Virus record (IMG/VR): IMGVR_UViG_3300020156_000036
Location: 1 to 54,966 of that record
Strand: one strand, 5' to 3'
Length of the DNA: 54,966 nt
Origin: a virus
Taxonomy: Duplodnaviria; Caudoviricetes
Positions 1 to 54,966 of this stretch are shown here, piece after piece. The notes beneath the pieces were generated by a model that saw nothing but the letters and a program-made list of their open reading frames with translations, searched no databases and was not told where the DNA came from. A program made the position numbers and the translations under genes. The stretch's first letter is position 1, and the number at the start of each line of letters is the position of its first letter.

Positions 1-700
1 GGTCCTTAACAGGCAGCGACTCCAGTTCTTCCAGATACTCCTCAGGCAAGTTTGCCATGTTGTGTATCGGGTTCATATGCATGTTGACGTACTGCTCGGG
101 GCGCTTCAGAGCTTCACCCGACTTCGGTTCAACGAGCTTGATGAACAGACGGTAAATCCAGTGCCCCACCGTCGGTGGGTTGCAGTCGTAATATGCCTTC
201 AGGGGCAGGTAGGCAGGGTTCTCGGGGTCATGCCCAGGCGGTTGCTCATCGAGCGGGCACTTCTGCGCCAAGCGAGTCATCGCCTTGTTGCGGGAGTCGT
301 AGCCAATCTGCGAGCATTCGTTCAGATAGATGGTCGCGTGCTCTTGACCCAGAATCTTCTCAGTGCGCTCCTTGTCGTCCAGACCGCCGAACCAAATCTT
401 GGAACCGTTGGCGAACTCAGCGTACCAATCAGTCTTGTCAAGGCGATACTTCACGCCAGGGAAGCATTTTGCCATGACATCCGGGAATGTCTGAGCGATG
501 ATCGACGACTTGATGTGGTTGAAACGGAAACGCAGGATAACGTGCGAGCTGTTCGACGCCTTCATGGCACGAATGCACACAGCACGTACCAGTAGCCATG
601 TTTTGCCAGACCGTGAACCACCGTACAGGAGAATATGCCGCGCGGGAGACCCGAGCAGTTTATTCCCCTCCTGTTGGCGTTCAGTGAGTCGGACTCTCAT
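1..700 (-). CDS. terL: Terminase large subunit, N-terminal ATPase part (continues across the window junction)
   Basis: Manual translation from ATG at 700: MRVRLTERQQEGNKLLGSPARHILLYGGSRSGKT (Walker A). Open to base 1 and rejoins the 54966 end in frame via the GGTCCTTAA overlap (..LESLPVKD|RQRFLEGKF..). Confidence 0.93.
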   Translation of the reverse strand, partial: MRVRLTERQQEGNKLLGSPARHILLYGGSRSGKTWLLVRAVCIRAMKASNSSHVILRFRFNHIKSSIIAQTFPDVMAKCFPGVKYRLDKTDWYAEFANGSKIWFGGLDDKERTEKILGQEHATIYLNECSQIGYDSRNKAMTRLAQKCPLDEQPPGHDPENPAYLPLKAYYDCNPPTVGHWIYRLFIKLVEPKSGEALKRPEQYVNMHMNPIHNMANLPEEYLEELESLPVKD

Positions 701-873
701 TCGTCGTCTCTGGGGTCCCTGTCGTTCATTTCCCGTTTCGCGATGACCCAAGCCACCGCACAGATCAGTACGATCACCGCCAAGATAATCGCTGGCATAT
801 AGCCAAGCGGCAATCCATCGAACTCCTCCACCTGCTTGGAGATGAGCTCAGCCGTGTTCCCGGCATCGTTCAC
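697..873 (-). CDS. Small single-TM membrane protein (58 aa) between terS and terL
   Basis: GTG overlaps the terS stop and TGA overlaps the terL ATG; hydrophobic stretch YMPAIILAVIVLICAVAWVIA. Not in the ORF track. Confidence 0.7.
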   Translation of the reverse strand: MNDAGNTAELISKQVEEFDGLPLGYMPAIILAVIVLICAVAWVIAKREMNDRDPRDDE

Positions 874-1355
874 AGGTCTGCATCCCCAGGGGTAATCGTG
901 ATATTGAAGCTGCCACCACCCAACGCGCCAAAGTTGGCGTACCGACCCGGGTTGCGGGCTTTAAGGAGGAACATGATGAGCTTCTCGGAACCGGCATGAG
1001 CCATGTTCATGGCCAGGTCCTCCAGGACCTCGGTTCCGATGTCGTGCGACTCTTTCCAGTCGTTCTTGAACTCTTCATTGCCGGGCTCATCGCGCCAGAC
1101 GTAGAAGGTCTTGCGGGCGGGGACGGCTCTGCCGAAACTGGGATGTGGCTCTTCGACGAGTTCTCGTCGCAGGTTGATATGCTTGTCAGGAACCGTCGCC
1201 CAGTCCTTCAGCATCTTGATCGCGCCGTCTACGGTCCAGCCATGAGCCAGCAGCTCCACGAAGTCCTGCATTAAGGACTCCTTGTCTTCGGGAGCATAGC
1301 CGAGCTTGCGGCTGTTGTTGGCTGAACCAGTGCCGTCGTAGCGCTCAGAACCCAT
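870..1355 (-). CDS. terS: Terminase small subunit
   Basis: HTH-like PARKTFYVWRDE..EFKNDW, helical LEDLA..SEKLIMFLLKARNPGRY; lies upstream of terL. Confidence 0.8.
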   Translation of the reverse strand: MGSERYDGTGSANNSRKLGYAPEDKESLMQDFVELLAHGWTVDGAIKMLKDWATVPDKHINLRRELVEEPHPSFGRAVPARKTFYVWRDEPGNEEFKNDWKESHDIGTEVLEDLAMNMAHAGSEKLIMFLLKARNPGRYANFGALGGGSFNITITPGDADL

Positions 1356-1444
1356 CGGTGTAAGCTACCTAGGTGAGTGACAATGACACCAAAGTAGTAT
1401 GCGAATGAATGCAAAGATACTGAACTGTGTGGCAAATGCCTTGG

Positions 1445-1648
1445 TTATTCAGTTTTTGCAGAATCTTCTGGGTTCTTTTCCAGATAGCTTTGGAACAGCT
1501 TATCTGGGAACAGGTCACTCACTTGTGGAGGACTGGGCAGGGTGAACAGCCACACGATCAGGCTGACCATCCCCGCCCCGGCTACGCACACGACGAATAA
1601 GAACTCGGGCGTCACGGACAAGGCATTTCCCTCCAGGATAAGTGACAC
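1445..1648 (-). CDS. Small membrane protein
   Basis: One hydrophobic helix; overlaps the 3' end of the upstream ORF. Confidence 0.45.
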   Translation of the reverse strand: MSLILEGNALSVTPEFLFVVCVAGAGMVSLIVWLFTLPSPPQVSDLFPDKLFQSYLEKNPEDSAKTE

Positions 1649-2000
1649 AAAGCAGCTGAGCGCTGAAAACTCCTAGGCCGAAATAATAATGCGGGTAGAC
1701 GGTTTCATAACCCTGGGCCTCTAGGAACCAGAACAGAGCCTGGCCCAAGAAGGATACGCCAAATAGCCACAGAACCAGTAACGCCCACCGTGGCCGCCGA
1801 GGTGGCATGCAGTAGGCACAGAGGCCAAATGCCCAGAAATCCATCAATAAGCTGCCAAGCTCTCCAGTCCACCCTGTATTCAGAGTGAGTATGGAGACTT
1901 GTACGAACCACATGACGCCGAGAACAAATACGTATGGCCTCGCGTGATAGTCACGCAAGGCTGTGAGCATCAGGAAAGGCCATACGTACTCGACCAGCAC
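1515..2000 (-). CDS. Multi-pass membrane protein
   Basis: 4-5 hydrophobic segments; GTG 1 nt after the stop of the poly-Pro ORF. Confidence 0.65.
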   Translation of the reverse strand: MLVEYVWPFLMLTALRDYHARPYVFVLGVMWFVQVSILTLNTGWTGELGSLLMDFWAFGLCAYCMPPRRPRWALLVLWLFGVSFLGQALFWFLEAQGYETVYPHYYFGLGVFSAQLLCVTYPGGKCLVRDARVLIRRVRSRGGDGQPDRVAVHPAQSSTSE

Positions 2001-2001
2001 C

Positions 2002-2112
2002 TTATTCGCCTTCGGTCTCGAACTTGGGTTGAGACGGCGGCGGAGGCGGCGGAGGCGGAGGCGGCGGAGGACGAACCCCGTCGTCTTCGGTCTGTTGGTT
2101 TTGATCGGTCAC
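2002..2112 (-). CDS. 36-aa peptide with 12 consecutive prolines
   Basis: GTG start, MTDQNQQTEDDGVR-P12-SQPKFETEGE; SD AAAGGAGGTGAT at 2116-2127. Confidence 0.75.
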   Translation of the reverse strand: MTDQNQQTEDDGVRPPPPPPPPPPPPSQPKFETEGE

Positions 2113-2139
2113 GTTATCACCTCCTTTCGGCTGACCTAA

Positions 2140-2168
2140 CTCTAGCACGTGGAGATGTCGGTGTATAC
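2140..2168 (-). promoter_or_regulatory. Sigma70-like promoter heading the late/packaging operon
   Basis: TATACA-N17-TAGAGT, with GC before the -10 hexamer. Confidence 0.5.
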
Positions 2169-2339
2169 ACAACGAAACGATGGCTTGGCAACCGGATTTT
2201 TGGTTTCTGTTATATGGAGGGAGGTATCGGGGTTTCGGTTATAGGAGAGTGACACACGGTTTTTGACTTTGGAGCTGTCGGGCGCCGCCCCTGACGACTT
2301 GGGCCCAAAATATATTGGCCAAATCGACTGAGCGAATAC

Positions 2340-2570
2340 TCAATCGCTCATGTTCTCTCTCCACCACATCTCAATACGACCGATAGCGGTTTGCATGTCA
2401 AGAGCAGTTGGCAAATCTTCATAGAGATCGTAATAAGTTTCGTCGTCAACATACTCAAGCACCATGAACGTGTTGTTTTCGAGTTTCGCGATGAAACACA
2501 CATCATCGTGCACATACACGACTTCAGCGCTCATGTTTTCGATAGCGATGGTCTCACCGACGTTGAACAT
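2340..2570 (-). CDS. Hypothetical protein
   Basis: GGAG SD; own TTTACT-N16-TAAGAT promoter. Confidence 0.7.
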   Translation of the reverse strand: MFNVGETIAIENMSAEVVYVHDDVCFIAKLENNTFMVLEYVDDETYYDLYEDLPTALDMQTAIGRIEMWWRENMSD

Positions 2571-2622
2571 GTCTCAATCTCCGTTGTTGAGATCATCTTA
2601 GCGCATTCGACGTAGAAGTAAA

Positions 2623-2875: not shown

Positions 2876-3394
2876 TCACGCCGCCAGTCGAAGACCGAGG
2901 GTTTCCATCACGCGACGGTAGTAGGCGAACAGAGCGGCGGGGTCGATCTTCGAGGCGAGTTTCCCCGAGTTGATGGCGCCGCCACAGATTTCCCCACCGC
3001 GCATGGCGTCATCCGGCGTGGTGATACCTTCGTCGGCCATGTAGTTGAGCAGAAGACGAACCTGGTTGGGCGCAGCCTGGAACGCCTTGTCGTAGTCCGT
3101 CGTGGACTTCACCGACAGGTCGTAGTAGTACAGCTTCGCCTTGAACGGCTGGTTGCCGGACAGGTTCCGCCCCGTCCTCACGACCTTCCCGTCCTCGCCA
3201 CGCTCTGCCGCACTCGGCTTCCGCTTCTTGACGTCCTTGACGATGTCGGCCAGAGCGGCGTTCTCACCGGCACGGTCGAGCAGCGCATCGGCTTCAGCCT
3301 CGTTCAGCTGCACCGGGGCGGCAGCAGCCTTGGTCTTGCGCGGGGCACGAGCCTTGGGCTCGGTGGTCGGGGCGGTTTGCTTCTTGGTAGCCAT
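2876..3394 (-). CDS. Putative DNA-binding protein: Lys/Ala/Pro-rich N-terminus plus winged-helix-like domain (paralog 1)
   Basis: C-terminal KLASKIDPAALFAYYRRVMETLG aligns with 17952..18725 and 19244..19633; high-GC3 codon usage; own promoter and SD. Confidence 0.7.
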   Translation of the reverse strand: MATKKQTAPTTEPKARAPRKTKAAAAPVQLNEAEADALLDRAGENAALADIVKDVKKRKPSAAERGEDGKVVRTGRNLSGNQPFKAKLYYYDLSVKSTTDYDKAFQAAPNQVRLLLNYMADEGITTPDDAMRGGEICGGAINSGKLASKIDPAALFAYYRRVMETLGLRLAA

Positions 3395-3481
3395 GTCTCA
3401 GTCTCCACGTTTTGCAGCGGATGTTCATTCATCCGATAGATGCATCCTACAACGTCCGCTGTCCGTGTACACAAAAGAAAG

Positions 3482-3497
3482 ATTACAAATTCGTAAT
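3482..3497. promoter_or_regulatory. Palindromic operator-like site ATTACAAATTCGTAAT
   Basis: Near copy of 2623-2638, upstream of the -35 of the promoter for 2876..3394. Confidence 0.45.
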
Positions 3498-3638
3498 GTT
3501 TTGGCCTGTTTACATCCGACCCAATCTAGTGTAGCCGCGCGTGCGCCCGCGAACTACTATGCGTGTCACCGAGCTCTCGCCCGGGCCAACGACATCCTCC
3601 CGCGCCTATCCCCGACCCACGCCCCCACGCGCCTTGCA

Positions 3639-3707
3639 CCCGCAAGCACTTTACTCGGCCGCTGGAACTACGCCCGCAAGCACTTTCGCCGAGCGCCCGC
3701 TGGAACT
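3639..3707. repeat. Imperfect direct repeat CCCGCAAGCACTTT...CGCTGGAACT (x2)
   Basis: Both blocks occur twice in a C-rich intergenic stretch. Confidence 0.7.
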
Positions 3708-3926
3708 TTACCGCCGCGCCACCTCATGACGCTCGATCTCGGCGCAACGCGGCAGCAGGTCCTCCTCCGTCGCCACGGCAACGCTACTGGGACTTTCACA
3801 GCCGAAGCCGACGAGCACAGTGTGAGGCGCGTTGTGCGGGTCATTCGCCGCATGGTCCCAGGCGATCAGCCCAATGATCGCGCCCAGCACGCCAATGATC
3901 ACGGCCATGATGTCGAACTTGTTCAT
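3708..3926 (-). CDS. Small protein with N-terminal TM helix
   Basis: ATG at 3926 after ACGTGGAG SD; MNKFDIMAVIIGVLGAIIGLIAW. Confidence 0.7.
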   Translation of the reverse strand: MNKFDIMAVIIGVLGAIIGLIAWDHAANDPHNAPHTVLVGFGCESPSSVAVATEEDLLPRCAEIERHEVARR

Positions 3927-4059
3927 AGTCAGTCTCCACGTTGATAGGTTGATAGTATCATGATTTGAGGAACACGTAATATGGCGCGGGTGGGTGGAAC
4001 CGAGAATGATGCGCGGCGGAGCGTGAGCGTAAAGGCGATGAGTGAATATTTCGCCCATA

Positions 4060-9829: not shown

Positions 9830-10178
9830 GAGAAAGTTCCTCAGCTTGGGTCATGAGCCTGAGTGCAGCTTCAAAATGAGCGTAGCTCTTGGTCCAGCCA
9901 GTTTCACCGCCAATCACGGCTGTATAGTGCGCCCCCGTTTCTGGGCTATCAAAGCGCAGATACTTACGGGCTCGTTGAGCCAGGATGTGTGCCTTCGCTT
10001 CATGGTAAGTTGCCGAACGTGCCTGCGCACCGTCCCGCATCGGGCCGATGCCATTGCTGTACATGCAGGCCGTTGGCGGTCCCCAGTTAAGCTGAAATAG
10101 CTCGCTATGCTGCTCTTCTGTCAGGTTCACGTCAAGGCAAACCGTCAAGTCATGGTTGTAAAATCGAGCCTGACGCAT
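9822..10178 (-). CDS. Hypothetical protein
   Basis: Start at MRQARF after ACGTGGAG SD; TTTACA-N17-TACACT promoter. Confidence 0.7.
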   Translation of the reverse strand: MRQARFYNHDLTVCLDVNLTEEQHSELFQLNWGPPTACMYSNGIGPMRDGAQARSATYHEAKAHILAQRARKYLRFDSPETGAHYTAVIGGETGWTKSYAHFEAALRLMTQAEELSHV

Positions 10179-10237
10179 GACACACTCTCCACGTTTCTGA
10201 GAAGAGTGTATCGTGTCTTTCGCCACCTGTAAACAGG

Positions 10238-12212: not shown

Positions 12213-12298
12213 CAGAAGTCTCCACGTTGATGTCTGAAGAGACTGTAACCTGAAAAAATGCGACCGTAAATCGGCTAGAGGAGTTTGACCTTGGAGAA

Positions 12299-14647: not shown

Positions 14648-14908
14648 CTACTCGTCGCCGTCGCCGTCGCCGTCGTCGCCCAGCTCGCCATCGTCGCCGT
14701 CGTCGTCGCCCAGCTCGCCGTCGTCGCCCTGGTCGGTGTCGTCCACGGTGTCGGCCACCTGGGCCTGGTCTTCCGCCGGGGTGCCGCCGCCCGAGGTCGG
14801 TTCGTCCGCGCCGTCGTCGATCGTGGTGAGGCCATGGCCCTGGTCGCTGTTCATCATCAGGCAGGCGGCCAGCAGGCCGAACGCCAGCATTCCGTGGAGA
14901 TGCTTCAT
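14648..14908 (-). CDS. Exported or lipoprotein-like, very Asp/Gly-rich small protein
   Basis: MKHLHGMLAFGLLAAC signal/lipobox-like; GDDGELGDD repeats; own promoter and terminator. Confidence 0.7.
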   Translation of the reverse strand: MKHLHGMLAFGLLAACLMMNSDQGHGLTTIDDGADEPTSGGGTPAEDQAQVADTVDDTDQGDDGELGDDDGDDGELGDDGDGDGDE

Positions 14909-17951: not shown

Positions 17952-18725
17952 TTACACGTTCATCGTATGATCTTCGAGCTTGTGTCGCTTGCCCGGATAG
18001 TACAGGAAACCGATATCGCCCAGTTCCGGCGCATAGTACGAGAAAATGCGCCACGGGTCTTGCTTCGTCTTGATGATGCCTTCACGAACGGCTTGGTGCA
18101 TCATATCTTTGAGTTCGGTCTCGACTGCTCGAGTCCTGCCGAACTTGATCAGTTCTTCACAGATTTGCCGCTTCTGTTTATTGAACTTGGCGATGATTTC
18201 CATGTTCTCAGGTAGGGTCATCCGGTCAAGCCGGATGGTGAACTGATCATCGTCAGCCACCTCGTTTATCGAGGTGGTTTGTTCGATGCGATCGGCGACC
18301 TGTTGTAATAGCAGCCAGAGCCAGTTCGCAGCGTCTATGCGACTGCCCATAAGGTCATCGGGCATGGGCTCAAAGTGTGGTGGTTCGATGGCCGCCGGAT
18401 TTTCCTGAGCTTGCTGCTTCCAGGTCTTATTCCAACACCTTGCGAAACCGGCAGCCTTGGCCTTTAGGCTGGTAGCGGCCGCGGTCTTGACGTTGAAGTA
18501 GGCGTAGGCGTCGAACAGGTCTTGGGTGCCAAAATGGCGAGCGAGGTCGTAAGGGCTCTGAAAGACTGTTCGACAGTTACTGCCGTATTTATCGGTGAGC
18601 AGGTCCATGGTGCGGAAAGTGCGTGCTGTCCAGCGCTGCGACTCTTCCTCATGGGCTTTCAGTTGCTTGCAGAGGAAAAGTACCCACTCGCCCTCTGGTC
18701 GTTCTTCATAGTCTGCATATTCCAC
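17952..18725 (-). CDS. Protein with C-terminal winged-helix-like domain (paralog 2)
   Basis: IIKTKQDPWRIFSYYAPELGDIG; ACGTGGAG SD and TTTACA promoter. Confidence 0.7.
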   Translation of the reverse strand: MEYADYEERPEGEWVLFLCKQLKAHEEESQRWTARTFRTMDLLTDKYGSNCRTVFQSPYDLARHFGTQDLFDAYAYFNVKTAAATSLKAKAAGFARCWNKTWKQQAQENPAAIEPPHFEPMPDDLMGSRIDAANWLWLLLQQVADRIEQTTSINEVADDDQFTIRLDRMTLPENMEIIAKFNKQKRQICEELIKFGRTRAVETELKDMMHQAVREGIIKTKQDPWRIFSYYAPELGDIGFLYYPGKRHKLEDHTMNV

Positions 18726-18819
18726 GTTGCAGTCTCCACGTTGATATCTGACATTACACTTTCCGGGTGTTCATGTAAACTTTCAGGGCGTGGATTAACC
18801 CCACTGATGGTGCAGATAC

Positions 18820-19243: not shown

Positions 19244-19633
19244 TTACGCCGTGGCGCCGGCGGCCGGCTTCGGAGCCGCGGCGGCCGGCTTCGGAGCAGC
19301 GGCAGCGGTTTCCTTGGCGGCGCCGGCGGCGGCCGGCTTGGCGGCGGTCTCCTTGGCCGGCTTCTCCGGCTTCGGTTCCGCTTCCTTCTCGATGACGATG
19401 ATGCCCTTTTCGACCAGCTGCGGCTGGTAGAAGGACAGGATGCGCGCCGGGTCCTGGCGGGTCGTCAGCTCGGACGACTTGGTCAGGGTCTCGATCACCG
19501 TCTTGCGCTCGGCGCGCTCGCCCGGCTTGCCGTCCTTGACCGAGGCGACGACGGCGTTGGCGCAGGCCTTGATCTGCGGGCCCAGCTTGTCGTCGTCCTT
19601 GGGCAGACGCACCAGCTTGATGAAGGTCTTCAT
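19244..19633 (-). CDS. Histone-H1-like protein: winged-helix-like domain plus Lys/Pro/Ala tail (paralog 3)
   Basis: LTTRQDPARILSFYQPQLVEKG then KPAAAAPKPAA tail; GGAG SD; TTTACA-N17-TACATT promoter; strong codon bias. Confidence 0.75.
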   Translation of the reverse strand: MKTFIKLVRLPKDDDKLGPQIKACANAVVASVKDGKPGERAERKTVIETLTKSSELTTRQDPARILSFYQPQLVEKGIIVIEKEAEPKPEKPAKETAAKPAAAGAAKETAAAAPKPAAAAPKPAAGATA

Positions 19634-33900: not shown

Positions 33901-34370
33901 TTCTGCCTCAAAGTAGTCGCAAAGCGACGGTTACCGGTTAAAACCGGCGGATTTGGCCACACCACGTCTTGGGGGTGGTTAAACGTACTTGTGATGTCTC
34001 TTAGTTGTTGTCTGTAAGCCACCCAAGCCGTTTTTTCTTGCTCTGTAAGAGGAGCATCGTTAACCTGTGTCCAGTCGCATCTACTTAATAGCGTGTTCCT
34101 TTGAGCTTGAACACCAGACCAGTCAGGGCCAGCTGCCTCAGCTTCTTGAGCCGCTATTTCAGCACAAGCTTCCCGGTAAGGACCACTAGCGCATGTATGA
34201 CAAATAAAAGCCGGAAGTGTTCCTGGCAGACCTTCAGTTGATACGAGACCCTGGGCTGGAAACTTACGAGGACAAGACGGACACTTATAAAGCGGCTTTA
34301 CATCTTCTCCACGGTTTTGAAGCACTGTCTCCAGAGTCAAGAGCTCATAAAGGTTGCTAGGTAGGGTCAT
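33897..34370 (-). CDS. Tail fibre assembly chaperone with N-terminal CxxC..CxxC
   Basis: RNTLLSRCDWTQ..WVAYRQQLRDI..VVWP. Confidence 0.8.
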   Translation of the reverse strand: MTLPSNLYELLTLETVLQNRGEDVKPLYKCPSCPRKFPAQGLVSTEGLPGTLPAFICHTCASGPYREACAEIAAQEAEAAGPDWSGVQAQRNTLLSRCDWTQVNDAPLTEQEKTAWVAYRQQLRDITSTFNHPQDVVWPNPPVLTGNRRFATTLRQK

Positions 34371-37300
34371 TGTGGTCTCACAGTCACGCGGGTTTTCTGA
34401 CCATTCGGAGTAGCTGTTCGCACACCGGAGCTACTGCCTGCCGACTGCCAGGTGTACGGGCCAACTCCGGTCACGGAGCCAGCCATTCCATTGGACGACC
34501 CACCACGTACTATGGCCAAGTCAGTCATTCCCGATCCTACCTGTACATCAGAAGAAATGCTCCAGAACTCCGTTACCGTCTGAGGGCCTGGAGGATACAT
34601 GTCTGGGTCCGCCTCGGTTGGAGCGAACAGAGTTGCCACCCGCGTCCAGACACCACCCTTACGGGCATACACATACAGGGTGGTACTTTGGTAATCTTCG
34701 TTACCGAATTCGATAGCACCACCACTGCTTCCCTGTACAAAATGGTTCTGCTGGCCGTTGGCCGCTACCGTGTACACGCCGTCTGCAGATTCCGGCAGAG
34801 CACCTCGCGCGATGTAATAGCCGGGAAAACCTTCAATGGTCACAGCCACGTCCGGACCACTGATGGATTGCGCCGAGGGCGTACCGGGGACGTTGATTTT
34901 AGCACGCATCGTGAACCCTGTTTGGGTCAGGTTCTCGGCCCGCACGTCGTAAGTCTCCCCGGCGGCAAGCGGGGCTAGATTGTTCATAGCAAAGGTCAAG
35001 GCGGGGAGGCCGCCAAGGTCGGTTCCGAACGAAACCACTTCGCCATCGGCAGCGCTGAAGTCCACCGAACGAAGCGCAACTGGCCACCCCTGCCCGTTGC
35101 CGAGGCGAATGAACGCCCCGGCCTGAAGACCACCGGTCAGCACCACGTTGCCATTGCTGACTTCCAGGGCCTTCTTCCAGTCTTGCCCTTGCGGGTTGAA
35201 GACAGCGAACTGGCGAGCTCCGATGGCCACCGACGACGTAGGCGGTGCTCCAGGGGTCAGCTCGGCCCGAGCTTCGATGAAGGCGTCTGCGCCAGGGACA
35301 GCGGCTCCAATGGCCCAACGAGCCATCGTACGGCCTTCCAGATCGGCCACAGCCTCCTCAGTCTCAGTAACACGAGCGTAAAGCTCCGCATCCAGGCCGT
35401 CAATGCGCAAATGATCGATAGAGACCCCGATATCCGGGTTACTATCATAGTTGGCAAGGAACACCAGCCGAATGTGAGTCGTTCCAGCTGGGAAAGCTAG
35501 ACCCGAGTTTCCACCAATCTTAGTCGACAGTTCAATAATGTCGAGAGGATTGTAAAGCTGACCAGAAGTCAGCAAATAGATGTTACCGTTAGCGGCTCCT
35601 ACAAGGTTGCCTGCAGAATCGAAGCACTTGATACCAGCGTAAACTCGAGCCTGACCAGAACCATGCACGAGGAACCGGGTGGAGATGTCGTATTCTTCAT
35701 TGACATCTACCGGGAACTTGTTGAGGCTGTACAGCTGGCGATAGTTGCCAGTGGCACGGAGCAGATTTGAATAACCACGATACGTAGCGATGGGTTGCCA
35801 GATAGATGGATTGGCTGGAGTCCAAGCTACATCCTGAGCCCAGCCCTCAACACCACGATCAAAGGACATGTTGCCCTCGATCATGGACAGGGCATCAACA
35901 CGAGCTTCAACCGTAGTTACACGACTGGCATCAGCCTTCAATAGTTGAAGGTTAGAGTTTGCTTGCTCAGTGCTGGCAATCCGCGCAGCGACTGAGGAGA
36001 AGCTGCCACGAGCTTGTTGAGTTTCAATCTCCTCAGGTCTGGCCGGACGTATGCCGCACAGATACCAAGTCAGACTATTCTCACTGACAACCGTCCCAAG
36101 ACCACCTTGGTGAGCCGAGGGGTCAATGCGAGCTCGCGTGGTGTTGGGGTTCACCGCCCGAATCAGCTTGGAGAAGCGATAGGTACGACCAATCTGGCCA
36201 TCACCAATAGCAACACCCATACTGTTATTGGGATCGGTGGTGAAAGGTATCAGATGACTATCAAGCGTCGTGCCGCCATTATCAACCTCACGCACCCGTA
36301 CCCCGGCTCCGTGCAGAGTCCCTGCGTCCAAGCGGAAATGTCCTTCAACGACCATGTACTGGTCTTTGACCCAAGTCCCAGGCTCAGTTGTTTGAGCCAA
36401 GTAGGCTGAACCTCCGGCAGGTGCAGTGACCTTAAAGCCGTATTGGGCTACTTCACCGGGGACGCGAGTGCCATCAGGACCGCTCTTAGCCCAATGAGTC
36501 GGGACACCGGTTGTAGTATTTTCTGGCCACAACGCCATCTGAGCGTTCTTGTTGATGAACCCTCCAGAAGCAGCTACTGCTGCTTGAGACTGAGCCTCAA
36601 GCGTAGTAACACGACTGGCTTCAGCCTTACCGGTCTCAAGATTGGCCGTTGCAGTTTCCAACAGACCAATACGAGCAGCGGCCGTATGTGTCTCAGTAAT
36701 GTCTTGAAGCGCAGACATCGAGCGAACTTTGACTGAAGCTCCGGCTCCAGGCGCCCGCATTGATGAAAACGACACACGACCAAATGCAGCATTCGCAGGG
36801 AAGAATGAGTCTACCCCAGTGACCCCACCACCACTTCTAGCGAACGTTAAGGAAACCTCGTGAGACCCTACAGCGTAGTTAACGTCGAGTAGAGAAGAAC
36901 CGCCAAGATAGTTACCATCCGCATCCCAAGAATAGCGCACGAAACGAGCATCGGCCGGAGCACCAACTTGGTCAAACTGAACCGAGACTTTGTAAACCTT
37001 GCCTAAAGCCAGAGGGCTGAGAGGCTGAGGAGCAATAGCGCGGGCATCGGTGAAGTTAGCATAATACCCACCAGCATCTTGAGCAACGTAAGCAGTTCCG
37101 AGAGGACCTGCCGGGTTGGCAGACGGGTCACGCGTAAAGTTGGCGCCGGTAGGCTCTGTGATGCGGTTTGAACCGACGTTTGAGACAGAAGCCTCAAGGA
37201 TGGCCACCCGGCTGGCATCAGCCTTGCCGGTGTTCAGATTGCCGATGGCTAGCGTCATGTCCGCAACCCGGGCTTTAATACCCGTGGTTGGTGTGTTGAG

Positions 37301-40300
37301 ATCGACTTCTACTGCCTCAACACGGCTAGCGTCAGCCTTACCTAGTTCAAGATCAGAAACAGCATCCTCAACTTCAGCTGTTCGAGCCAACAGGCCTGTC
37401 GTCGGAGTCTGTACCTGAGTTTCAAGAGTTGATACGCGAGTAACTGAGGCCTTGCCGCTATCCAGATCGGACACGGCATCCTCCAGTTGGGTGGCGCGTG
37501 CCATCAAGCTGATTTCGTCGCTGTGGTCAAACAGCGGAGACATCTCGCGGACTTTTGCAGTTCCGCCAGCTGAATTACGAAGAGGTTGCCACGCTATTCT
37601 AACATATACAGTACCATCAACCAACGTGGTATCAACGCCATCCACCCCGATACCAAATGTGCGAGTAATCTCACTTGCACCAAGAGGAGTGGGATAAAGT
37701 GCCGTGCTCTGGCTGCCGAGGTAAACGCCATTAGCGTCAAATCGATAAGCCACGAACCGACCAGTGTCTGCGACACCATATTGCTCATGAAGTACACGGA
37801 CTTGATAGGCTTTACCGGCAACGAGACGCTTAACTCGCTTGTGGGCGATGTTTTGCTGACTATTAAACTCTATATTCGGACCGACCGCATCAACGGTGAT
37901 ACGGCCCACAGGCATGTCCGGTGGAGCAAAGGCGCTAGCACCTTGAGTATGGCGAGTTCCGGTAGCGTCAATGACAGGGCTATCAATGCCAGCCAACGAA
38001 GCTTCTACGACACTTACGCGGCTTGCATCAGCTTTGCCAAGGTTTAGACTGGCAACAGCGCTATCGAGCCCAGCCACCCGAGCAAGAATACCCGTGGTCG
38101 GGGTATTGATCGACTGTTCCACAACCGACAGACGACTCGCACTGTCCTCAGTCGCTTCCTCGACTTGACCCACTCGAACCTTGAGTCCAGTAGTCGGGTT
38201 ATCTATATCGGCTTCAACTTCTTCAACTCGGTCCTCAAGCAACGCCCGTGCCTGATTGGCCGCAGCCAAACCTTGAGTCAGCCTAGTGTCGAGTTCGCCA
38301 ACACTAAGGTTAAGGTTGCTGATAGCAGTATCTAGCGCCGTTTGTGCGCGCTGCTCAGCTTCAGTAATCAATCCCGGTACAGCATCAATCGCACTCAAGA
38401 CGCCATCTCGAGGACGTCCCCCGATATTTACAGTGTCATCACTTACATTGGAGCCACCCGGAATGGACACTGGGTCCTCGAGCCCCACGTAAACCCAATC
38501 CGAGACCCAGTTGTCTTGAGTCCTAAAGCGGCCGCGAACGATGTAATCTTCGCCAGCGATAATATTTCTGAAATCACCGATAGGATTTGACGCAGGCAGA
38601 GGCTGGCCAGCACTGTCAAAAATGCCTTCGCCTTCTGAATCAAGCTGGGCAAACTCAACATCCAGATACTGAATGTCACCAGCCGTGATCGGGTCAGCAA
38701 TCACCGCGATCACAGGATAAGATGAACCAGTCGCCGCAGTCCTCACGACCGCTATGGCATCAAAACCCGTCGGCGCCAGAACAGTCTTACGAACCTCAAT
38801 CCCAAGAACAGTGGTAGGTGTTGAGAAATCACCTCGGCGAAGCAAAGTTCTAATCTCAACATCGATCAGCGTCTGGATATCCAGGTCAGGGTCATCGGGG
38901 TCATAAGCCGGACGCTGAATAGGCGGAGTTTTGAAGACTCGTGTATCAGAGCCCAGGATAGGCAACGTGTTCCAAGAACCGCCACTATACCGCCACCGAG
39001 CAACAAAGCCCTGAATAGGATTGTTCGCCGTCTCCACAACGTCGTAGAGAACCTCGACACCATCAGGCTCGCCACGAGTACTGATAATGCGCGGCTTAGG
39101 AGCAGCCTCACGTGGTTTCAGACCAGTACTGATATCCGGTATAGGACCAGTTTCAGCGGCTTCAATAATGTCTGCAATATACGGAGAAGCAGAGATGCGG
39201 ATAGACGACGCATCTTGTGAGTCGAAGTTATCGATTTCAACATCTTCAGTAACCAGGTTCGTTTCACCGAACACAACCAAGTCATCTTTATGCGGGGCAT
39301 CTGCCTCCGCCAAAGGAACCTGGAAATACAAGTTACGAGACGAACCTGGGTTATTTGTCAGTGCGATGCCAACAATAGACTCAGCCGCCCTGCGCACGTC
39401 AATCGAATAATCCAGACCGACATCCATCTCTGCGGCGAAATCTACACGAATGCCAGTAACCATCGTCTTCTCGGCATTAAACCACCGATTGACGACTCGA
39501 CCAGCAGCCTTGCCATAAAGTGCTGCGTGGTGTGAGACTTTGATGCGATCACCGTAGGTTGCGGTAACCCCGTCAAACCCAGCCGTGAACTCATGCACTT
39601 CAGTCTTGTATTCCCGCTTAGCGAGGTAGACTCGACCTTCTTTGAAAGCACGCTCTAACGTACAGGCATACGGAAGACGCAGAGTTTCAAACTGGGTGGC
39701 GTTCTCAGCAGTGTAGCCGTCAGCATACACCCAGACTTCATCAGCACCAGAGCTCTCGTCAAGGTTCTTGAACTCGACGAAAACGGCATGGATTTCGTCT
39801 TGGAACTCGCGCCGATACTTATATGCTGAAACATTTACCGCGCTGAACACTTGACGCGGGATTGGTTTTTCCCAATCTGTAACAAAACACAGGTCTTCAC
39901 CTGACCAGTAGGTGCTGAAACGACCTGCTTGCCCACAGACTCGCATCAAATCTTCTTGAGACATTTCGTCAGTGACGAAAATGCCAGCCCTCCAGTCATT
40001 GGCTTCAATCAACTGATAGGCAGTCTCACAAGAACCGTTGATTTCTTCAGGTGTGAGAGGATTATTCGCCGGAGGCCCTGTCAGCACCCACCGCAGACAC
40101 GCTGCCATGTTAGAGGACGGTTCTGCAGTATCCCAGTTCCCATTCTTAAAAACTGGTACGATGGGAGTGACTACACCACTGACAACGGGCAAGGTGCCGT
40201 TCAGGTCTCCTGAGGACTTAATCCGCAGGACGATACAGGAAAGGTTTTCGTCATTGATGGGCTTGCGGTTGAATACAGACCGAACGGCGGTCCAGTAAGT

Positions 40301-41401
40301 ATCCCAAACCGATGTATCATCAAAACGGTTGTCATAATCATAAGCCTTGACCCGAACCTTGTACTGTTTGGTCTGGTCAGGCAGGTTGAACGAATACGTA
40401 CGGCGAATGGCGTTCTGAGTGCGAGCGTTGATATAGAACGAACCAGCCGGCATGAGCTGACCATTCTTGTTATATGCAGCAGGCAAGCCAGCATTGACCC
40501 AGGCTTCAGTGTCTACTTCCGCATATTGAATTTGCCCCGCGACTTCTTCGTTTTTCTTGCGGCCCTTATCATCAGTAAAGTTCAGGCCATTCGGGAGGGT
40601 GATGTCGATCTCAGCACGATCGGCGCCTTCTTGAAGAGTGGCGACTTCCCAGGTGCCGTGCAGGTCCAGTTCGTCGTTTCGATTCTCTTGAAACTTTGAT
40701 TGCCTATACAGGTTGCTGTTACGTGGACCAGGCGTCAGAAAATATTCGATCTGATAATCTGAAGCTGGATAATCAGCGAGCAGAGTCTCGCCGATCTTAA
40801 TATCTTCAACCTGACATGGTCCGTAGTGCACGCCAAAGATGACGTTAATCCAGGACTGGTCTCCGCGGTTTTCTGTATAACCAAGTGCTGCTACATCGAA
40901 ACCAACCCGCTGACGACCTAGCACAAGAGGCATGGGATAGCGTCGGCGAATGTTATTCGATTGATCTCTTAGAGACCCACTATCGTTTGCGTCTGCGAGC
41001 TGTTCAGGATGGTTAGGCGGGAACAAAGCTGTAGTCAGCACAGCTCCGGCCACTTGAACTGCAGCAGCGGCCCACGGTCCATACATTGCGCCAACTACAA
41101 TGGCAGCAACCTGAACGAAGATTTGGAACGCTGTCCGTAGCGGATTGTCACCATGCGCTTTGACATCGATGACAACCAAGTCGCCATCAACCAAGCATCG
41201 ATCTAGCGCCTCAGGTGTCTTGGGCTGCAGCTCGCCGTTGACTCGGATTTCTACACGCGGCAAATCAACGTAGTCAAGCTTCTTCTGAGCAATCGCACAG
41301 CGAAGGGCTCCGGCCAGATTATTACCAGGCACTGTCCTAAGACGCTCAATCCGAGGCTTGAGCGGCTCAGGTGAAATGATAACGTCGTTACCGGAGCTCA
41401 T
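34367..41401 (-). CDS. Tail tip / central fibre (lambda J-like) with coiled-coil repeats and several beta-sandwich domains
   Basis: 2344 aa; PLVLGRQRV and FN3-like regions; GKADASRV and PTTG repeats. Confidence 0.88.
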   Translation of the reverse strand: MSSGNDVIISPEPLKPRIERLRTVPGNNLAGALRCAIAQKKLDYVDLPRVEIRVNGELQPKTPEALDRCLVDGDLVVIDVKAHGDNPLRTAFQIFVQVAAIVVGAMYGPWAAAAVQVAGAVLTTALFPPNHPEQLADANDSGSLRDQSNNIRRRYPMPLVLGRQRVGFDVAALGYTENRGDQSWINVIFGVHYGPCQVEDIKIGETLLADYPASDYQIEYFLTPGPRNSNLYRQSKFQENRNDELDLHGTWEVATLQEGADRAEIDITLPNGLNFTDDKGRKKNEEVAGQIQYAEVDTEAWVNAGLPAAYNKNGQLMPAGSFYINARTQNAIRRTYSFNLPDQTKQYKVRVKAYDYDNRFDDTSVWDTYWTAVRSVFNRKPINDENLSCIVLRIKSSGDLNGTLPVVSGVVTPIVPVFKNGNWDTAEPSSNMAACLRWVLTGPPANNPLTPEEINGSCETAYQLIEANDWRAGIFVTDEMSQEDLMRVCGQAGRFSTYWSGEDLCFVTDWEKPIPRQVFSAVNVSAYKYRREFQDEIHAVFVEFKNLDESSGADEVWVYADGYTAENATQFETLRLPYACTLERAFKEGRVYLAKREYKTEVHEFTAGFDGVTATYGDRIKVSHHAALYGKAAGRVVNRWFNAEKTMVTGIRVDFAAEMDVGLDYSIDVRRAAESIVGIALTNNPGSSRNLYFQVPLAEADAPHKDDLVVFGETNLVTEDVEIDNFDSQDASSIRISASPYIADIIEAAETGPIPDISTGLKPREAAPKPRIISTRGEPDGVEVLYDVVETANNPIQGFVARWRYSGGSWNTLPILGSDTRVFKTPPIQRPAYDPDDPDLDIQTLIDVEIRTLLRRGDFSTPTTVLGIEVRKTVLAPTGFDAIAVVRTAATGSSYPVIAVIADPITAGDIQYLDVEFAQLDSEGEGIFDSAGQPLPASNPIGDFRNIIAGEDYIVRGRFRTQDNWVSDWVYVGLEDPVSIPGGSNVSDDTVNIGGRPRDGVLSAIDAVPGLITEAEQRAQTALDTAISNLNLSVGELDTRLTQGLAAANQARALLEDRVEEVEADIDNPTTGLKVRVGQVEEATEDSASRLSVVEQSINTPTTGILARVAGLDSAVASLNLGKADASRVSVVEASLAGIDSPVIDATGTRHTQGASAFAPPDMPVGRITVDAVGPNIEFNSQQNIAHKRVKRLVAGKAYQVRVLHEQYGVADTGRFVAYRFDANGVYLGSQSTALYPTPLGASEITRTFGIGVDGVDTTLVDGTVYVRIAWQPLRNSAGGTAKVREMSPLFDHSDEISLMARATQLEDAVSDLDSGKASVTRVSTLETQVQTPTTGLLARTAEVEDAVSDLELGKADASRVEAVEVDLNTPTTGIKARVADMTLAIGNLNTGKADASRVAILEASVSNVGSNRITEPTGANFTRDPSANPAGPLGTAYVAQDAGGYYANFTDARAIAPQPLSPLALGKVYKVSVQFDQVGAPADARFVRYSWDADGNYLGGSSLLDVNYAVGSHEVSLTFARSGGGVTGVDSFFPANAAFGRVSFSSMRAPGAGASVKVRSMSALQDITETHTAAARIGLLETATANLETGKAEASRVTTLEAQSQAAVAASGGFINKNAQMALWPENTTTGVPTHWAKSGPDGTRVPGEVAQYGFKVTAPAGGSAYLAQTTEPGTWVKDQYMVVEGHFRLDAGTLHGAGVRVREVDNGGTTLDSHLIPFTTDPNNSMGVAIGDGQIGRTYRFSKLIRAVNPNTTRARIDPSAHQGGLGTVVSENSLTWYLCGIRPARPEEIETQQARGSFSSVAARIASTEQANSNLQLLKADASRVTTVEARVDALSMIEGNMSFDRGVEGWAQDVAWTPANPSIWQPIATYRGYSNLLRATGNYRQLYSLNKFPVDVNEEYDISTRFLVHGSGQARVYAGIKCFDSAGNLVGAANGNIYLLTSGQLYNPLDIIELSTKIGGNSGLAFPAGTTHIRLVFLANYDSNPDIGVSIDHLRIDGLDAELYARVTETEEAVADLEGRTMARWAIGAAVPGADAFIEARAELTPGAPPTSSVAIGARQFAVFNPQGQDWKKALEVSNGNVVLTGGLQAGAFIRLGNGQGWPVALRSVDFSAADGEVVSFGTDLGGLPALTFAMNNLAPLAAGETYDVRAENLTQTGFTMRAKINVPGTPSAQSISGPDVAVTIEGFPGYYIARGALPESADGVYTVAANGQQNHFVQGSSGGAIEFGNEDYQSTTLYVYARKGGVWTRVATLFAPTEADPDMYPPGPQTVTEFWSISSDVQVGSGMTDLAIVRGGSSNGMAGSVTGVGPYTWQSAGSSSGVRTATPNGQKTRVTVRPQ

Positions 41402-52838: not shown

Positions 52839-54314
52839 TCAGGCTCCAGCGTCAGGCTCTTGTTCAGAGGGTTTGGGTTCCGGCTCCGTCCCAGTAGGAG
52901 GCTTGGTTTCTTCAGACTTCTTAACAGGTCCAGGGCCAGTCTTTTCACCGTTTTCCTCGAAAGCTGCTTCAAAGCCCGGGAACTGACCATCTTCGATCAG
53001 TTGGTTCGCCTGAGTGCGAGCCAGGACTTCCATCGGAATGAGATTAGTCTCAGCGATCGTGCGAATCGTATCCGCACGGGTTTTCGAGACAGCTGCAGCA
53101 TCTTTCTCACTCATCTGCCACAGCGGCGCCCACACGTAATACATATCACGCGGCGATTTACCCAAAGCAGAGCGCTTAACCATCTCATCCAACGGCGCTA
53201 TGGCAGGGCTCAACTCACTTTTTTGTTCTGATTTGACTCGATCGTAATAGACGCGCTCTTCCGTATCGCCGGTGGCGTTAAGGCCTTGAGGCGACAGACC
53301 AACCATCAGGGTTGCTGGAATAGACAGAGCTCCAGAAGCGATCTGCAGATACAGCTTCAGAATATCCGGCAATTGCGTAAAGTTGATTTGTTTGCGTTCC
53401 CACTGCTCTTCAGAATCCAGGATGAGAGTGTTCTGCGAAGACTTGGCGGCCGCGGCGTACATAAAGCGCTTGGTGAGGCGTTCCGTATAGTCCGCGGTCG
53501 ACAGGTGTTCCATCAGGTTCGGAATACGCACGACATCGATCTTGGCCTCTTGCACCAGGCCCGCAATACCAGCCTGAGCCACGGCGGCGTGCATGATCGC
53601 GTCCTTCACCACCTGCAGAACCGAGTCAGACCAGAAATCGTTCTCGCCCTTAGCCAAACGACGATGCGGAACCTGATTGCCGAAGAAGCGGATAACTCGC
53701 GAGGGGTGGATGCGCGGGTAACGCACGCTACGAGCACTGCCCTGATTGGTCAGCTGCAGTTCCCAGTACATGGGTTCACCAAACCAAGGCGAAAGCAGGT
53801 CGGTGTCTAGCCCAATCGGACGAAGGTCATAGCGAGAGACCGGCAGGAGATACTTCAGACCACCCCTCGTGACCTGAGAGGGGATGAGAGGCTCGTCCGG
53901 GTTCCCAGGACCACCAATGATAATAGCCCCACCCCCGTAGAGTCGACCGAGGATACGAGCCTTCTTAATCGCAGCCCACATCCCCAGCCGAGCTTCCTCG
54001 AGCTCGATCTTTTCGATGTTGTCTTTCTTGGTTTGCCAGTTACGACCTTGGCGAACCGAGTCCTCCGCTGGCAACAGAACAGCCTTGCGGGCAATCCAAT
54101 CGCCACGGAACGAGTTCTCGAGCTCGACTTCGCCCATCGGAGCGAATACAAACTGATTGGCCGTATTCTTGTCATGCGACATGCCAAGACCTGAGACCAG
54201 GTTCAGCATAGAGTCGAAGAGCATCACACCCTTGTCAGCCGCGGCTTGGGCTCCACCAGGCGGCAAGCGCTGGGCAGTGGCCGGGTCGACGTCGGTGTAT
54301 GGAGTATCGGTCAT
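52839..54314 (-). CDS. Portal protein (DUF1073-type)
   Basis: RLYGGG, IHPSRVIRF, IPATLMVGLSPQGLNATG. Confidence 0.92.
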   Translation of the reverse strand: MTDTPYTDVDPATAQRLPPGGAQAAADKGVMLFDSMLNLVSGLGMSHDKNTANQFVFAPMGEVELENSFRGDWIARKAVLLPAEDSVRQGRNWQTKKDNIEKIELEEARLGMWAAIKKARILGRLYGGGAIIIGGPGNPDEPLIPSQVTRGGLKYLLPVSRYDLRPIGLDTDLLSPWFGEPMYWELQLTNQGSARSVRYPRIHPSRVIRFFGNQVPHRRLAKGENDFWSDSVLQVVKDAIMHAAVAQAGIAGLVQEAKIDVVRIPNLMEHLSTADYTERLTKRFMYAAAAKSSQNTLILDSEEQWERKQINFTQLPDILKLYLQIASGALSIPATLMVGLSPQGLNATGDTEERVYYDRVKSEQKSELSPAIAPLDEMVKRSALGKSPRDMYYVWAPLWQMSEKDAAAVSKTRADTIRTIAETNLIPMEVLARTQANQLIEDGQFPGFEAAFEENGEKTGPGPVKKSEETKPPTGTEPEPKPSEQEPDAGA

Positions 54315-54966
54315 GCCACATTCGCCAAGGTATAGGTTGAGCCAGTGAGCAGAAGCTCGGTGAAGCCCCAGATCATTGAGTCAGCACGGTCCGGAGACTT
54401 ACCGCCCTCATAGCCAGAGCTTGAGAAGTTGCAGAGTTGTTCTTCCAGGTCAGGGAAATAACCGACATGGAAGATTTTTCCGATCGGTTGGTTGTTCACC
54501 GCCTTCATCGGGTCACCGTACAACAGTGCCACAGGCTCAGCTCGTTGAGCCTTGCCGCGAGACGCTGTAATGATCTTTACAGGAGCAGCGGGCCAGTGGG
54601 CTCGAATGGTCGCTTCCACCATTGCGCCACCATAGTTACGTTCAGCGATGATGACGTCTGCGCCGTATTTGTCGTAAAGTTGTTTGGCCTTGATGGCCCA
54701 TTGTTTCGGTGAGTATCGGCCCGAGGCGTCTTCAAGCAGATAACCACGCTTCTGGTGGTCCTTGGCCGTGACGGTAATACCGATTTCATCTGAACGGTAA
54801 TCCTCCTCGCCTTCACAACCGGACGGGTCGATGTTCACCGAGATACGGGCCAGGAATGGCACCTGCTCAATCTTGCGGCGGTGACGATCGATCAGGTCTT
54901 GTGTCCAGAGTGCGTTGTCGACCTGCGCCAGGAACTTACCCTCGAGGAAGCGCTGACGGTCCTTAA
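54311..54966 (-). CDS. terL: Terminase large subunit, C-terminal nuclease part
   Basis: VNIDPS, DEIGI, AERNYGG, SPDRADS; frame open to the window end. Confidence 0.93.
   Translation of the reverse strand, partial: KDRQRFLEGKFLAQVDNALWTQDLIDRHRRKIEQVPFLARISVNIDPSGCEGEEDYRSDEIGITVTAKDHQKRGYLLEDASGRYSPKQWAIKAKQLYDKYGADVIIAERNYGGAMVEATIRAHWPAAPVKIITASRGKAQRAEPVALLYGDPMKAVNNQPIGKIFHVGYFPDLEEQLCNFSSSGYEGGKSPDRADSMIWGFTELLLTGSTYTLANVA

Follow-up and report, generated by a model that had tools for sequence, protein, structure and literature searches.

A polyproline mini-gene ahead of the membrane-protein and terminase genes of an uncultured phage: a possible cis-acting leader ORF

Bacterial ribosomes stall on stretches of at least three prolines in a row unless EF-P assists them, and runs of 12 or 13 prolines are among the sequences hardest for these ribosomes to translate. 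The window analyzed here, a 54,966-nt uncultured viral contig from soil, carries on its minus strand a conserved phage gene of which a run of this length makes up a large share, and this gene bears the best ribosome-binding site of the contig. The locus raises the question of whether such a mini-gene is real and, if so, whether it acts through the ribosomes that translate it, through the peptide that they would make, or through its RNA.

The mini-gene and its neighbors

The coding features of the locus, all within the window, are as follows.

2127..2116, minus strand: Shine-Dalgarno (SD) sequence AAAGGAGGTGAT, with AAC (3 nt) between its last base and the GTG
2112..2002, minus strand: polyproline mini-gene, GTG start at 2112..2110, 36 codons plus TAA (2004..2002)
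2070..2035, minus strand: run of 12 proline codons (4 CCT and 8 CCG, no CCC or CCA)
2000..1515, minus strand: multi-pass membrane protein gene, 161 codons, recognized by hydropathy, with no Pfam or PHROG family
1355..870, minus strand: putative small terminase subunit gene, 161 codons, named from its position only, directly upstream of TerL
873..697, minus strand: ORF of 58 codons encoding a single hydrophobic segment, located after the putative small terminase gene and before TerL
751..2, minus strand: large terminase subunit (TerL), N-terminal part (PHROG 979, E=1e-36; Pfam Terminase_3 and Terminase_6N)

The first-pass annotation had described a GTG-initiated mini-gene with 12 consecutive prolines behind an SD, followed after 1 nt by the next gene, and both observations hold on the minus strand. 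The translation is (M)TDQNQQTEDDGVR-P12-SQPKFETEGE, 36 residues in length, and the junction reads TAAgGTG, with the single base G at 2001 separating the stop from the GTG at 2000. The 11-nt match AAGGAGGTGAT is the longest anti-SD complement on either strand of the contig, followed by one site of 9 nt, with the motif taken as a complement of the 16S rRNA 3' end, which may not be that of the host. A screen of the window's short ORFs (2,708 candidates) left the mini-gene as the sole one both rich in D, E, and P and led by an SD, and a rough collection of 50 long ORFs (approximately 14,800 codons) contained just one other PPP. The run itself (2035..2070) is called as a tandem repeat with periods of 3, 9, and 15 by Tandem Repeats Finder; contigs from the probable source run break within this repeat yet match the window over 2041..2070. 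A second soil run contains pieces identical to the flanks (1300..1361 and 2442..2622), between which only unrelated repeat matches were found. On the strength of these features and of the comparisons below, the mini-gene is more than a chance ORF; it is a genuine phage gene, the translation of which we infer from its sequence.

The gene that follows encodes a membrane protein without any Pfam or PHROG match, for which a word-indexed database returned only the protein itself. Exhaustive HMMER searches recovered 15 relatives of 142 to 187 residues at 28 to 55% identity, all from metagenome assemblies. None of the 15 carries a polyproline N-terminal extension, and the alignments start at their N-termini, which argues that the mini-gene is a separate cistron. 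Two strongly hydrophobic stretches stand out in the hydropathy scan of this protein, and its relatives show additional ones; from the alignment combined with the positive-inside rule, five segments are predicted, with an external N-terminus and an internal Arg-rich tail, and the sequence carries RRPR in addition to this tail. The nearest clusters in the ESM Atlas are viral hypothetical proteins (scores of 0.90 to 0.91), and the Atlas record of the protein has a pTM of 0.64, with every structural neighbor below a TM score of 0.5. An SD-like GAAGG is located 8 nt before the membrane-gene GTG, inside the last codons of the mini-gene.

A 159-nt gap separates the membrane gene from the putative small terminase gene, the product of which has no Pfam or PHROG match, and the TerL gene is truncated by the contig end. 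A 217-codon open frame (54311-54964, minus strand) enters the right end of the contig, and 250 TerL codons exit the left end. TerL is thus apparently split over both ends, with the family check covering its N-terminal part only, and the contig may be a circularly permuted, nearly complete genome. Elsewhere in the contig, triplet-type tandem repeats that are apparently coding occur at 14652-14743 and 19258-19357 (TCG/CGTCGC units and GGC-rich units of 21 to 24 nt). A 2,344-codon ORF (34367-41401, minus strand) includes internal copies of a 37-nt repeat, three of them at 114-nt spacing, and adjoins a protein with PHROG matches to tail fiber assembly proteins. The contig contains no tRNA genes.

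The mini-gene had also been said to open a late operon. It does follow a gap of 227 nt (2339..2113), upstream of which is a 76-codon ORF, and it does precede the membrane and terminase genes; a consensus scan of 2113..2339 on the strand of the gene found neither a promoter nor a terminator, so that an operon opening here is plausible only. The long ORFs upstream, to approximately 21.5 kb, are mostly on the same strand as the mini-gene. A motif, AACGTGGAGAC(T), recurs on the minus strand (3391-3411, 3931-3951, 10175-10195, 12217-12237, and 18722-18751); its copy at 3394 is just upstream of a minus-strand gene start, and it may represent a shared ribosome-binding context. A complement-like sequence, CATCTCCACGTG, is found in the opposite sense upstream of the mini-gene.

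Close relatives and a second polyproline family

The closest relative of the membrane protein is encoded on L084, a metagenome contig of 1,744 nt, which also carries the mini-gene. The L084 copy has the SD GAGAGGAG, starts with GTG-ACC-GAC, and consists of 45 codons (49..186) encoding MTDTTKTEEAEVDGVRPRPDN-P13-TSAPAAEETDA; its TGA overlaps the GTG of the membrane gene by 4 nt (GTGA). The genes that follow are in the same order as in the window: membrane protein, putative small terminase, small hydrophobic ORF, and large terminase. Identity between the two contigs is 84% for the putative small terminase, 83% for the N-terminal part of TerL, 65% for the 58-codon hydrophobic ORF, and 48% for the membrane protein. 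In the mini-gene, 22 of 36 aligned residues are identical, including the 12 of the run, which leaves 10 identical residues among the 24 aligned outside it. The sequence DGVRP is preserved despite three synonymous third-base changes, and the other differences include in-frame indels. The extended 11-nt SD is not retained in L084, where an SD-like GAGGA is present before the membrane gene, within the last codons of the mini-gene.

These comparisons bear on the simplest explanation, that the run is a low-complexity tract born of slippage in a dispensable or untranslated short ORF and has no selected function. The codon order of the run is irregular in the window and forms a near-perfect (CCTCCG)5 in L084, and the length is 12 or 13 codons in both, which suggests that the tract turns over by slippage while its length is held. 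A slippage origin is also consistent with the tandem-repeat call, with the other triplet repeats in the contig, with the absence of the cassette from another close relative (see below), and with the fact that the ORF is not in the protein database. However, the run has kept its length while the membrane protein drifted to 48% identity, and the start, an SD, the frame, and the stop junction are all retained in L084. A separate family with an invariant run of seven prolines, avoidance of CCC inside the runs only, and the lack of look-alike ORFs on other strands or elsewhere in the filter scans described below likewise argue against a tract without function, which we consider unlikely. The first-pass annotation had taken the mixture of CCG and CCT codons as a sign of selection on the protein. 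The mixture alone also fits slippage of CCGCCT-type units, and it is the relatives that provide the evidence for selection: the ORF is conserved in L084 with in-frame changes, an SD precedes all four polyproline ORFs for which DNA is available, and the run is conserved, at 12 and 13 residues in this family and at seven in all four members of the second, contrary to the refuting condition of an unconserved run set in the first-pass annotation.

The other close relative found, L003, encodes a putative small terminase 74% identical to that of the window and is missing the cassette of mini-gene and membrane gene. The slot ahead of the putative small terminase gene resembles a site where accessory or envelope-related genes are exchanged. 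In L003, the same slot (3389-3915) contains a 52-codon proline-rich, lipoprotein-like ORF with a lipobox-like LFLASC and a 126-residue BTLCP transglutaminase-like cysteine peptidase (Pfam PF06035, E=8e-43). The window (2876-3394, minus strand) and L003 (2206-2823) also share, upstream of this variable slot, a conserved protein of 172 and 205 residues, respectively, that has a Lys/Ala/Pro-rich N-terminus and no PHROG or Pfam match. An ORF with one hydrophobic segment precedes TerL in all three close relatives (window 697-873; L084, 1284-1442; L003, 4410-4598).

The contents of the L003 slot bring to mind a lysis-related peptide of the Rz1 kind, that is, an o-spanin. The lambda Rz1 protein is small and proline rich (PMC5295617), and one ORF of the second family, in the contig L027, follows an Amidase_2 gene (an endolysin cassette) and ORFs with hydrophobic N-terminal stretches. 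The defining feature of an o-spanin is a lipoprotein signal peptide with a lipobox Cys. The mini-gene peptide lacks a hydrophobic N-terminus and a lipobox and does not contain a single Cys, and extending the frame upstream adds no signal peptide; on this evidence the o-spanin assignment was rejected, and a lysis role of this kind is very improbable.

Family 1, as the mini-genes of the window and L084 are called here, consists of these two sequences. Scans of IMG/VR with queries A2, P0008, and A6 returned nothing further; a scan of species genomes with query A2 returned nothing, and a scan of metagenomes returned L084 only. Cultured phages gave no family 1 match, and Synechococcus phage Ssp-JY42, the closest cultured phage by TerL (52% identity), shows no comparable ORF in the gap that precedes its putative small terminase gene. 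A profile of the membrane-protein family, run against all ORFs of at least 60 codons in the collected loci, matched only the window's own copies and L084. A peptide search of the protein database with query A5 gave six candidates, none of which scored. A DNA pattern combining DGVRP with eight proline codons matched 1 viral sequence and 18 genomes, all of which were discarded as chance matches in high-GC DNA, matches in other frames, or matches inside long ORFs; these include L089, located in a bacterial pyruvate-carboxylase region.

A wider survey retained 80 loci with TerL proteins 53 to 61% identical to that of the window, from at least 596 confirmed matches. The membrane protein was found in the flanks of none of the 80, and a comparable proline-rich ORF was found in one, L027. 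The mini-gene is therefore dispensable, to judge from its absence from L003 and from 79 of the 80 distant loci, and the missing cassette of L003 together with the rarity of the membrane protein and the ORF at the 80 loci indicates that it is not essential for late-gene expression. In two contigs with a related large terminase, mutually related and extremely proline-rich ORFs of 73 and 79 codons (L067:56-277 and L069:366-605; MGQNLPTH...PIRQSV) are located approximately 2.5 kb upstream of TerL.

The L027 ORF has 40 codons and encodes MFEPEEEVPQATNGE-P7-AGPPKPPPTEPILPHEIC; it starts where the preceding gene stops, and its end lies within the small terminase SD, TAGGAG. A 42-codon homologue, which also ends in a TAGGAG SD, was found in L105 through relatives of this small terminase gene, and the protein database supplied another two members (43 and 44 residues), of which one is encoded on a contig of 765 kb. 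This second family follows the pattern MF[ED]P[ED]E..P7..GP.K..HEIC over 40 to 44 residues, with exactly seven prolines in all four members. The DNA that encodes HEIC is also part of the conserved small terminase ribosome-binding region, so that HEIC may be conserved as DNA. Comparison of the two families by hhalign aligned a single column at a probability of 39%, and homology between them is not demonstrated. A blind filter applied to both strands of 91 loci (P of at least 25%, D+E of at least 15%, K+R of at most 12%, SD present) passed 4 of 27,156 candidate short ORFs; three of these are distinct, and all are polyproline ORFs described here, on the terminase strand.

It is possible that the product itself matters: a small, strongly acidic peptide, stiffened by a polyproline-II rod, could act in trans on the membrane protein or on a host or packaging protein. 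Such a peptide, with a net charge of about -5, would face RRPR and the Arg-rich loops and tail of the membrane protein, the gene for which accompanies the mini-gene in both contexts that can be viewed. The second family holds its run at exactly seven prolines in all four members and also conserves the GP.K and HEIC that follow it. Against a trans-acting peptide, the sequence outside the run drifts fast (10 of 24 residues identical, compared with 84% in the putative small terminase), no fused forms occur among the 15 relatives of the membrane protein, the second family has no adjacent membrane protein of the window's family, and the conservation of HEIC may be imposed at the DNA level by the small terminase ribosome-binding region. 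We also know of no polyproline-binding target in the bacterial cytoplasm. This reading is tentative, and it is taken up again below with the codon evidence.

Codon choice, leader RNA, and the preferred reading

CCC is found at none of the 39 codons of the long proline runs (18 CCT, 17 CCG, and 4 CCA), compared with 7 of the 20 other proline codons of the same ORFs and a background use of 18 to 24%. The depletion has a Fisher p of 2e-4 overall and of 0.015 and 0.045 in the individual families, values computed on codons that slippage and shared ancestry make non-independent. Among proline codons CCC is the slowest, and CCC/U followed by C/U favors +1 slips (PMC8129111). Its avoidance inside the runs points to in-frame translation that must finish rather than to maximal stalling, and the read-through that it suggests to be obligatory speaks against a pure stall or sink; a ribosome/EF-P sink was one of three roles proposed in the first-pass annotation, beside an EF-P-sensing leader or timer and a polyproline-II ligand for the membrane protein. 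The same avoidance fits selection for a finished product, as a trans-acting peptide would require.

The proline run could also be the site of a programmed +1 frameshift, at CCU-C, with a fusion of peptide and membrane protein as its product. The membrane gene of the window is in the +1 frame, which is open from 2108 through the run, and CCC/U-C/U sequences promote such slips (PMC8129111). In L084, however, the membrane gene is in the other frame, and a TGA at 168..170 intervenes between the run and its start; no relative of the membrane protein has a long N-terminus. The L084 stop excludes the fusion as a conserved feature, although it is possible in the window, and among the readings weighed here we give this one the least credence.

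Two further features belong to the untranslated leader.

2280..2176, minus strand: C-rich, G-poor untranslated stretch of rut-like composition (60-nt windows, C of 0.35 to 0.37 and G of 0.08 to 0.13)
2157..2137, minus strand: block common to the window and L084 (CAYCTCC..GCTANAGTYA), found by alignment

The C-rich tract might act as RNA, for example by loading Rho together with the C-rich leader, with the coding frame being incidental. The C/G ratio of the leader stretch reaches 4.4 (the 99.9th percentile of the contig is 3.22, and its maximum is 4.8), which places it in the top 0.1% of windows, and the proline run has the highest C content in the contig (0.53). C-richness is common to proline-coding and rut sequences (PMC5021804). 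The composition of the leader fits a Rho site, a role that it may play. On the other hand, an incidental frame would not be expected to preserve the start, the SD, in-frame indels, and the stop junction in two families, and avoidance of CCC is unexpected where CCC would only add C. That the RNA alone is what counts is therefore quite improbable.

The shared block contains an anti-SD-like CATCTCC (2157..2151) and a -10-like TAGAGT (2144..2139); its pattern matches once in the window and at least once in 34 of 100 shuffles, so that the block alone is not significant. The minimum-energy fold joins CAUCUCC to the SD by pairing (z of -1.16), and the SD-pairing hairpins are no better than ordinary (z of -1.16 and -1.07). 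Folding the 241 nt of 2200..1960 gave no improvement over shuffled sequences (z of +0.51), no consensus RNA structure was found between the window and L084, and no attenuator-type alternative structures (terminator/antiterminator or hidden ribosome-binding site) were found at the mini-gene.

The preferred reading, to which we assign a probability of about 0.4, is that the mini-gene works in cis, as a leader ORF that is difficult to translate and that limits or gates the downstream gene coupled to it. The strong SD would load ribosomes efficiently onto the mini-gene, which would then present an acidic N-terminus followed by 12 prolines while the nascent chain is still within the ribosome tunnel. 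By extension of the general rule for runs of at least three prolines, ribosomes would cross the run slowly and only with host EF-P. Those that complete the mini-gene would feed the adjacent start: because the membrane gene starts 1 nt after the stop (and overlaps it in L084), the flow of finishing ribosomes would set membrane-protein output through such coupling. This flow might also decide whether the transcript behind the C-rich leader stays covered into the packaging genes, where translating ribosomes may shield C-rich RNA from Rho as they do in polyproline-plus-rut reporters (PMC5021804).

Published work is consistent with several of these steps. The strongest stalls are described when Arg immediately precedes PPP (PMC4176338); the residue before the long run is Arg in the window (VR-P12) and Asn in L084. 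N-terminal chains rich in D, E, and P can destabilize the ribosome and abort translation, mostly within the first 30 residues or so (bioRxiv 10.1101/2021.02.02.429294). D, E, and P account for 13 to 16 of the first 26 residues in all four ORFs with DNA, and the net charge is about -5. A polyproline stall has been reported to uncouple transcription from translation and lead to Rho-dependent termination, and CCN-rich RNA resembles rut sites (PMC5021804).

The case for a cis-acting leader ORF is built from its conservation and specificity, its codon choice, its acidic and proline-rich composition, the stop/start junction, and its apparent status as a separate cistron. Several observations weigh against it. 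No switchable RNA structure was found near the mini-gene in the folds or in the comparison with L084, the extended SD is lost in L084, and the cassette is missing in L003. SD-like sequences also precede the downstream genes themselves (GAAGG in the window, GAGGA in L084, and TAGGAG in L027), so that coupling need not be obligatory. The second family is conserved on both sides of its run, which fits a functional peptide at least as well, and avoidance of CCC indicates pressure to complete translation, not to stall. With these points taken into account, the trans-acting peptide is nearly as likely as the cis-acting leader. A bolder version of the cis reading, and a rather unlikely one, is that polyproline mini-genes are phage ribosome-parking gates at the entrance to packaging genes, with strong initiation and passage for EF-P-proficient ribosomes only, that arose at least twice and make expression a readout of the translation state of the host; downstream expression would then depend on reinitiation, Rho protection, or nuclease protection.

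Comparison with known systems

A literature search of main texts, incomplete in coverage, found no paper on polyproline mini-genes in phages. A mini-gene with a role in cis would be the first polyproline leader ORF found in a phage, far longer in its run than the bacterial ones, and would tie the expression of phage membrane or packaging genes to host EF-P. Should the peptide instead be what acts, it would represent a new class of phage proteins that are tiny, acidic, and polyproline-bearing. In both cases the locus offers a small natural system in which to test EF-P, ribosome stalling, and translational coupling.

Among phage proteins, the o-spanins of the lambda Rz1 type are likewise small (approximately 40 residues) and proline rich; they differ from the mini-gene product in the signal peptide and lipobox Cys noted above. 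The 5' mRNA stabilizers STAB-SD of Bacillus thuringiensis and hbs of Bacillus subtilis depend on a strong SD or a bound ribosome, and ribosomes held there can block nucleases (PMC5737220, PMC4113751); the mini-gene likewise has a very strong SD, close to what may be a 5' end. In contrast, the extended SD of the mini-gene is not conserved in L084, and the ORFs of the second family are in the middle of a string of genes.

Control by a slow or aborting ribosome offers closer parallels. In tnaC and in synthetic reporters that combine PPPPPP with a rut site, a slow ribosome near C-rich RNA decides Rho termination (PMC5021804); the mini-gene shares with these the C-rich, G-poor leader and the C-rich run by composition alone. 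Intrinsic ribosome destabilization, as in MgtL (MEPDPT), also depends on an early sequence rich in D, E, and P. All four polyproline ORFs with DNA show this enrichment within approximately the first 30 residues, and the second family starts with MFEPEE, whereas the acidic cluster of family 1 is at residues 8 to 13 rather than at residues 2 to 6. The stop and start signals resemble those of coupled gene pairs throughout, with TAAgGTG in the window, GTGA in L084, and a TAG inside the SD of the next gene in the second family. The 8-codon intergenic upstream ORF mgtQ controls translation of the next gene by being translated itself (PMC8092293). Its translation opens a hairpin that hides the next ribosome-binding site, and no such hairpin is seen at the mini-gene.

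The proline-codon leaders of Salmonella bear comparison at the level of gene arrangement. The mgtP leader ORF, which contains proline codons and is linked to EF-P, precedes mgtCBR. Similarly, mgtL is a short ORF with proline codons before the membrane-protein gene mgtA, and its action depends on proline supply or EF-P (PMC5021804, PMC12856214). The mini-gene resembles such leader ORFs in being short, in being positioned directly before the next gene (1 nt, or overlapping in L084), and in containing consecutive prolines, on what is assumed to be a common transcript. It differs from them in RNA structure, since the leader ORFs rely on alternative structures set by the ribosome, and only weak SD-pairing hairpins were found upstream of the mini-gene. 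Whereas mgtL and mgtP have 3 or 4 proline codons and work through alternative hairpins and Rho, the mini-genes of family 1 have 12 or 13 consecutive prolines and no switchable structure that could be found. Unlike either of the Salmonella leaders, the mini-gene belongs to a phage and is linked to the next gene by a stop/start junction.
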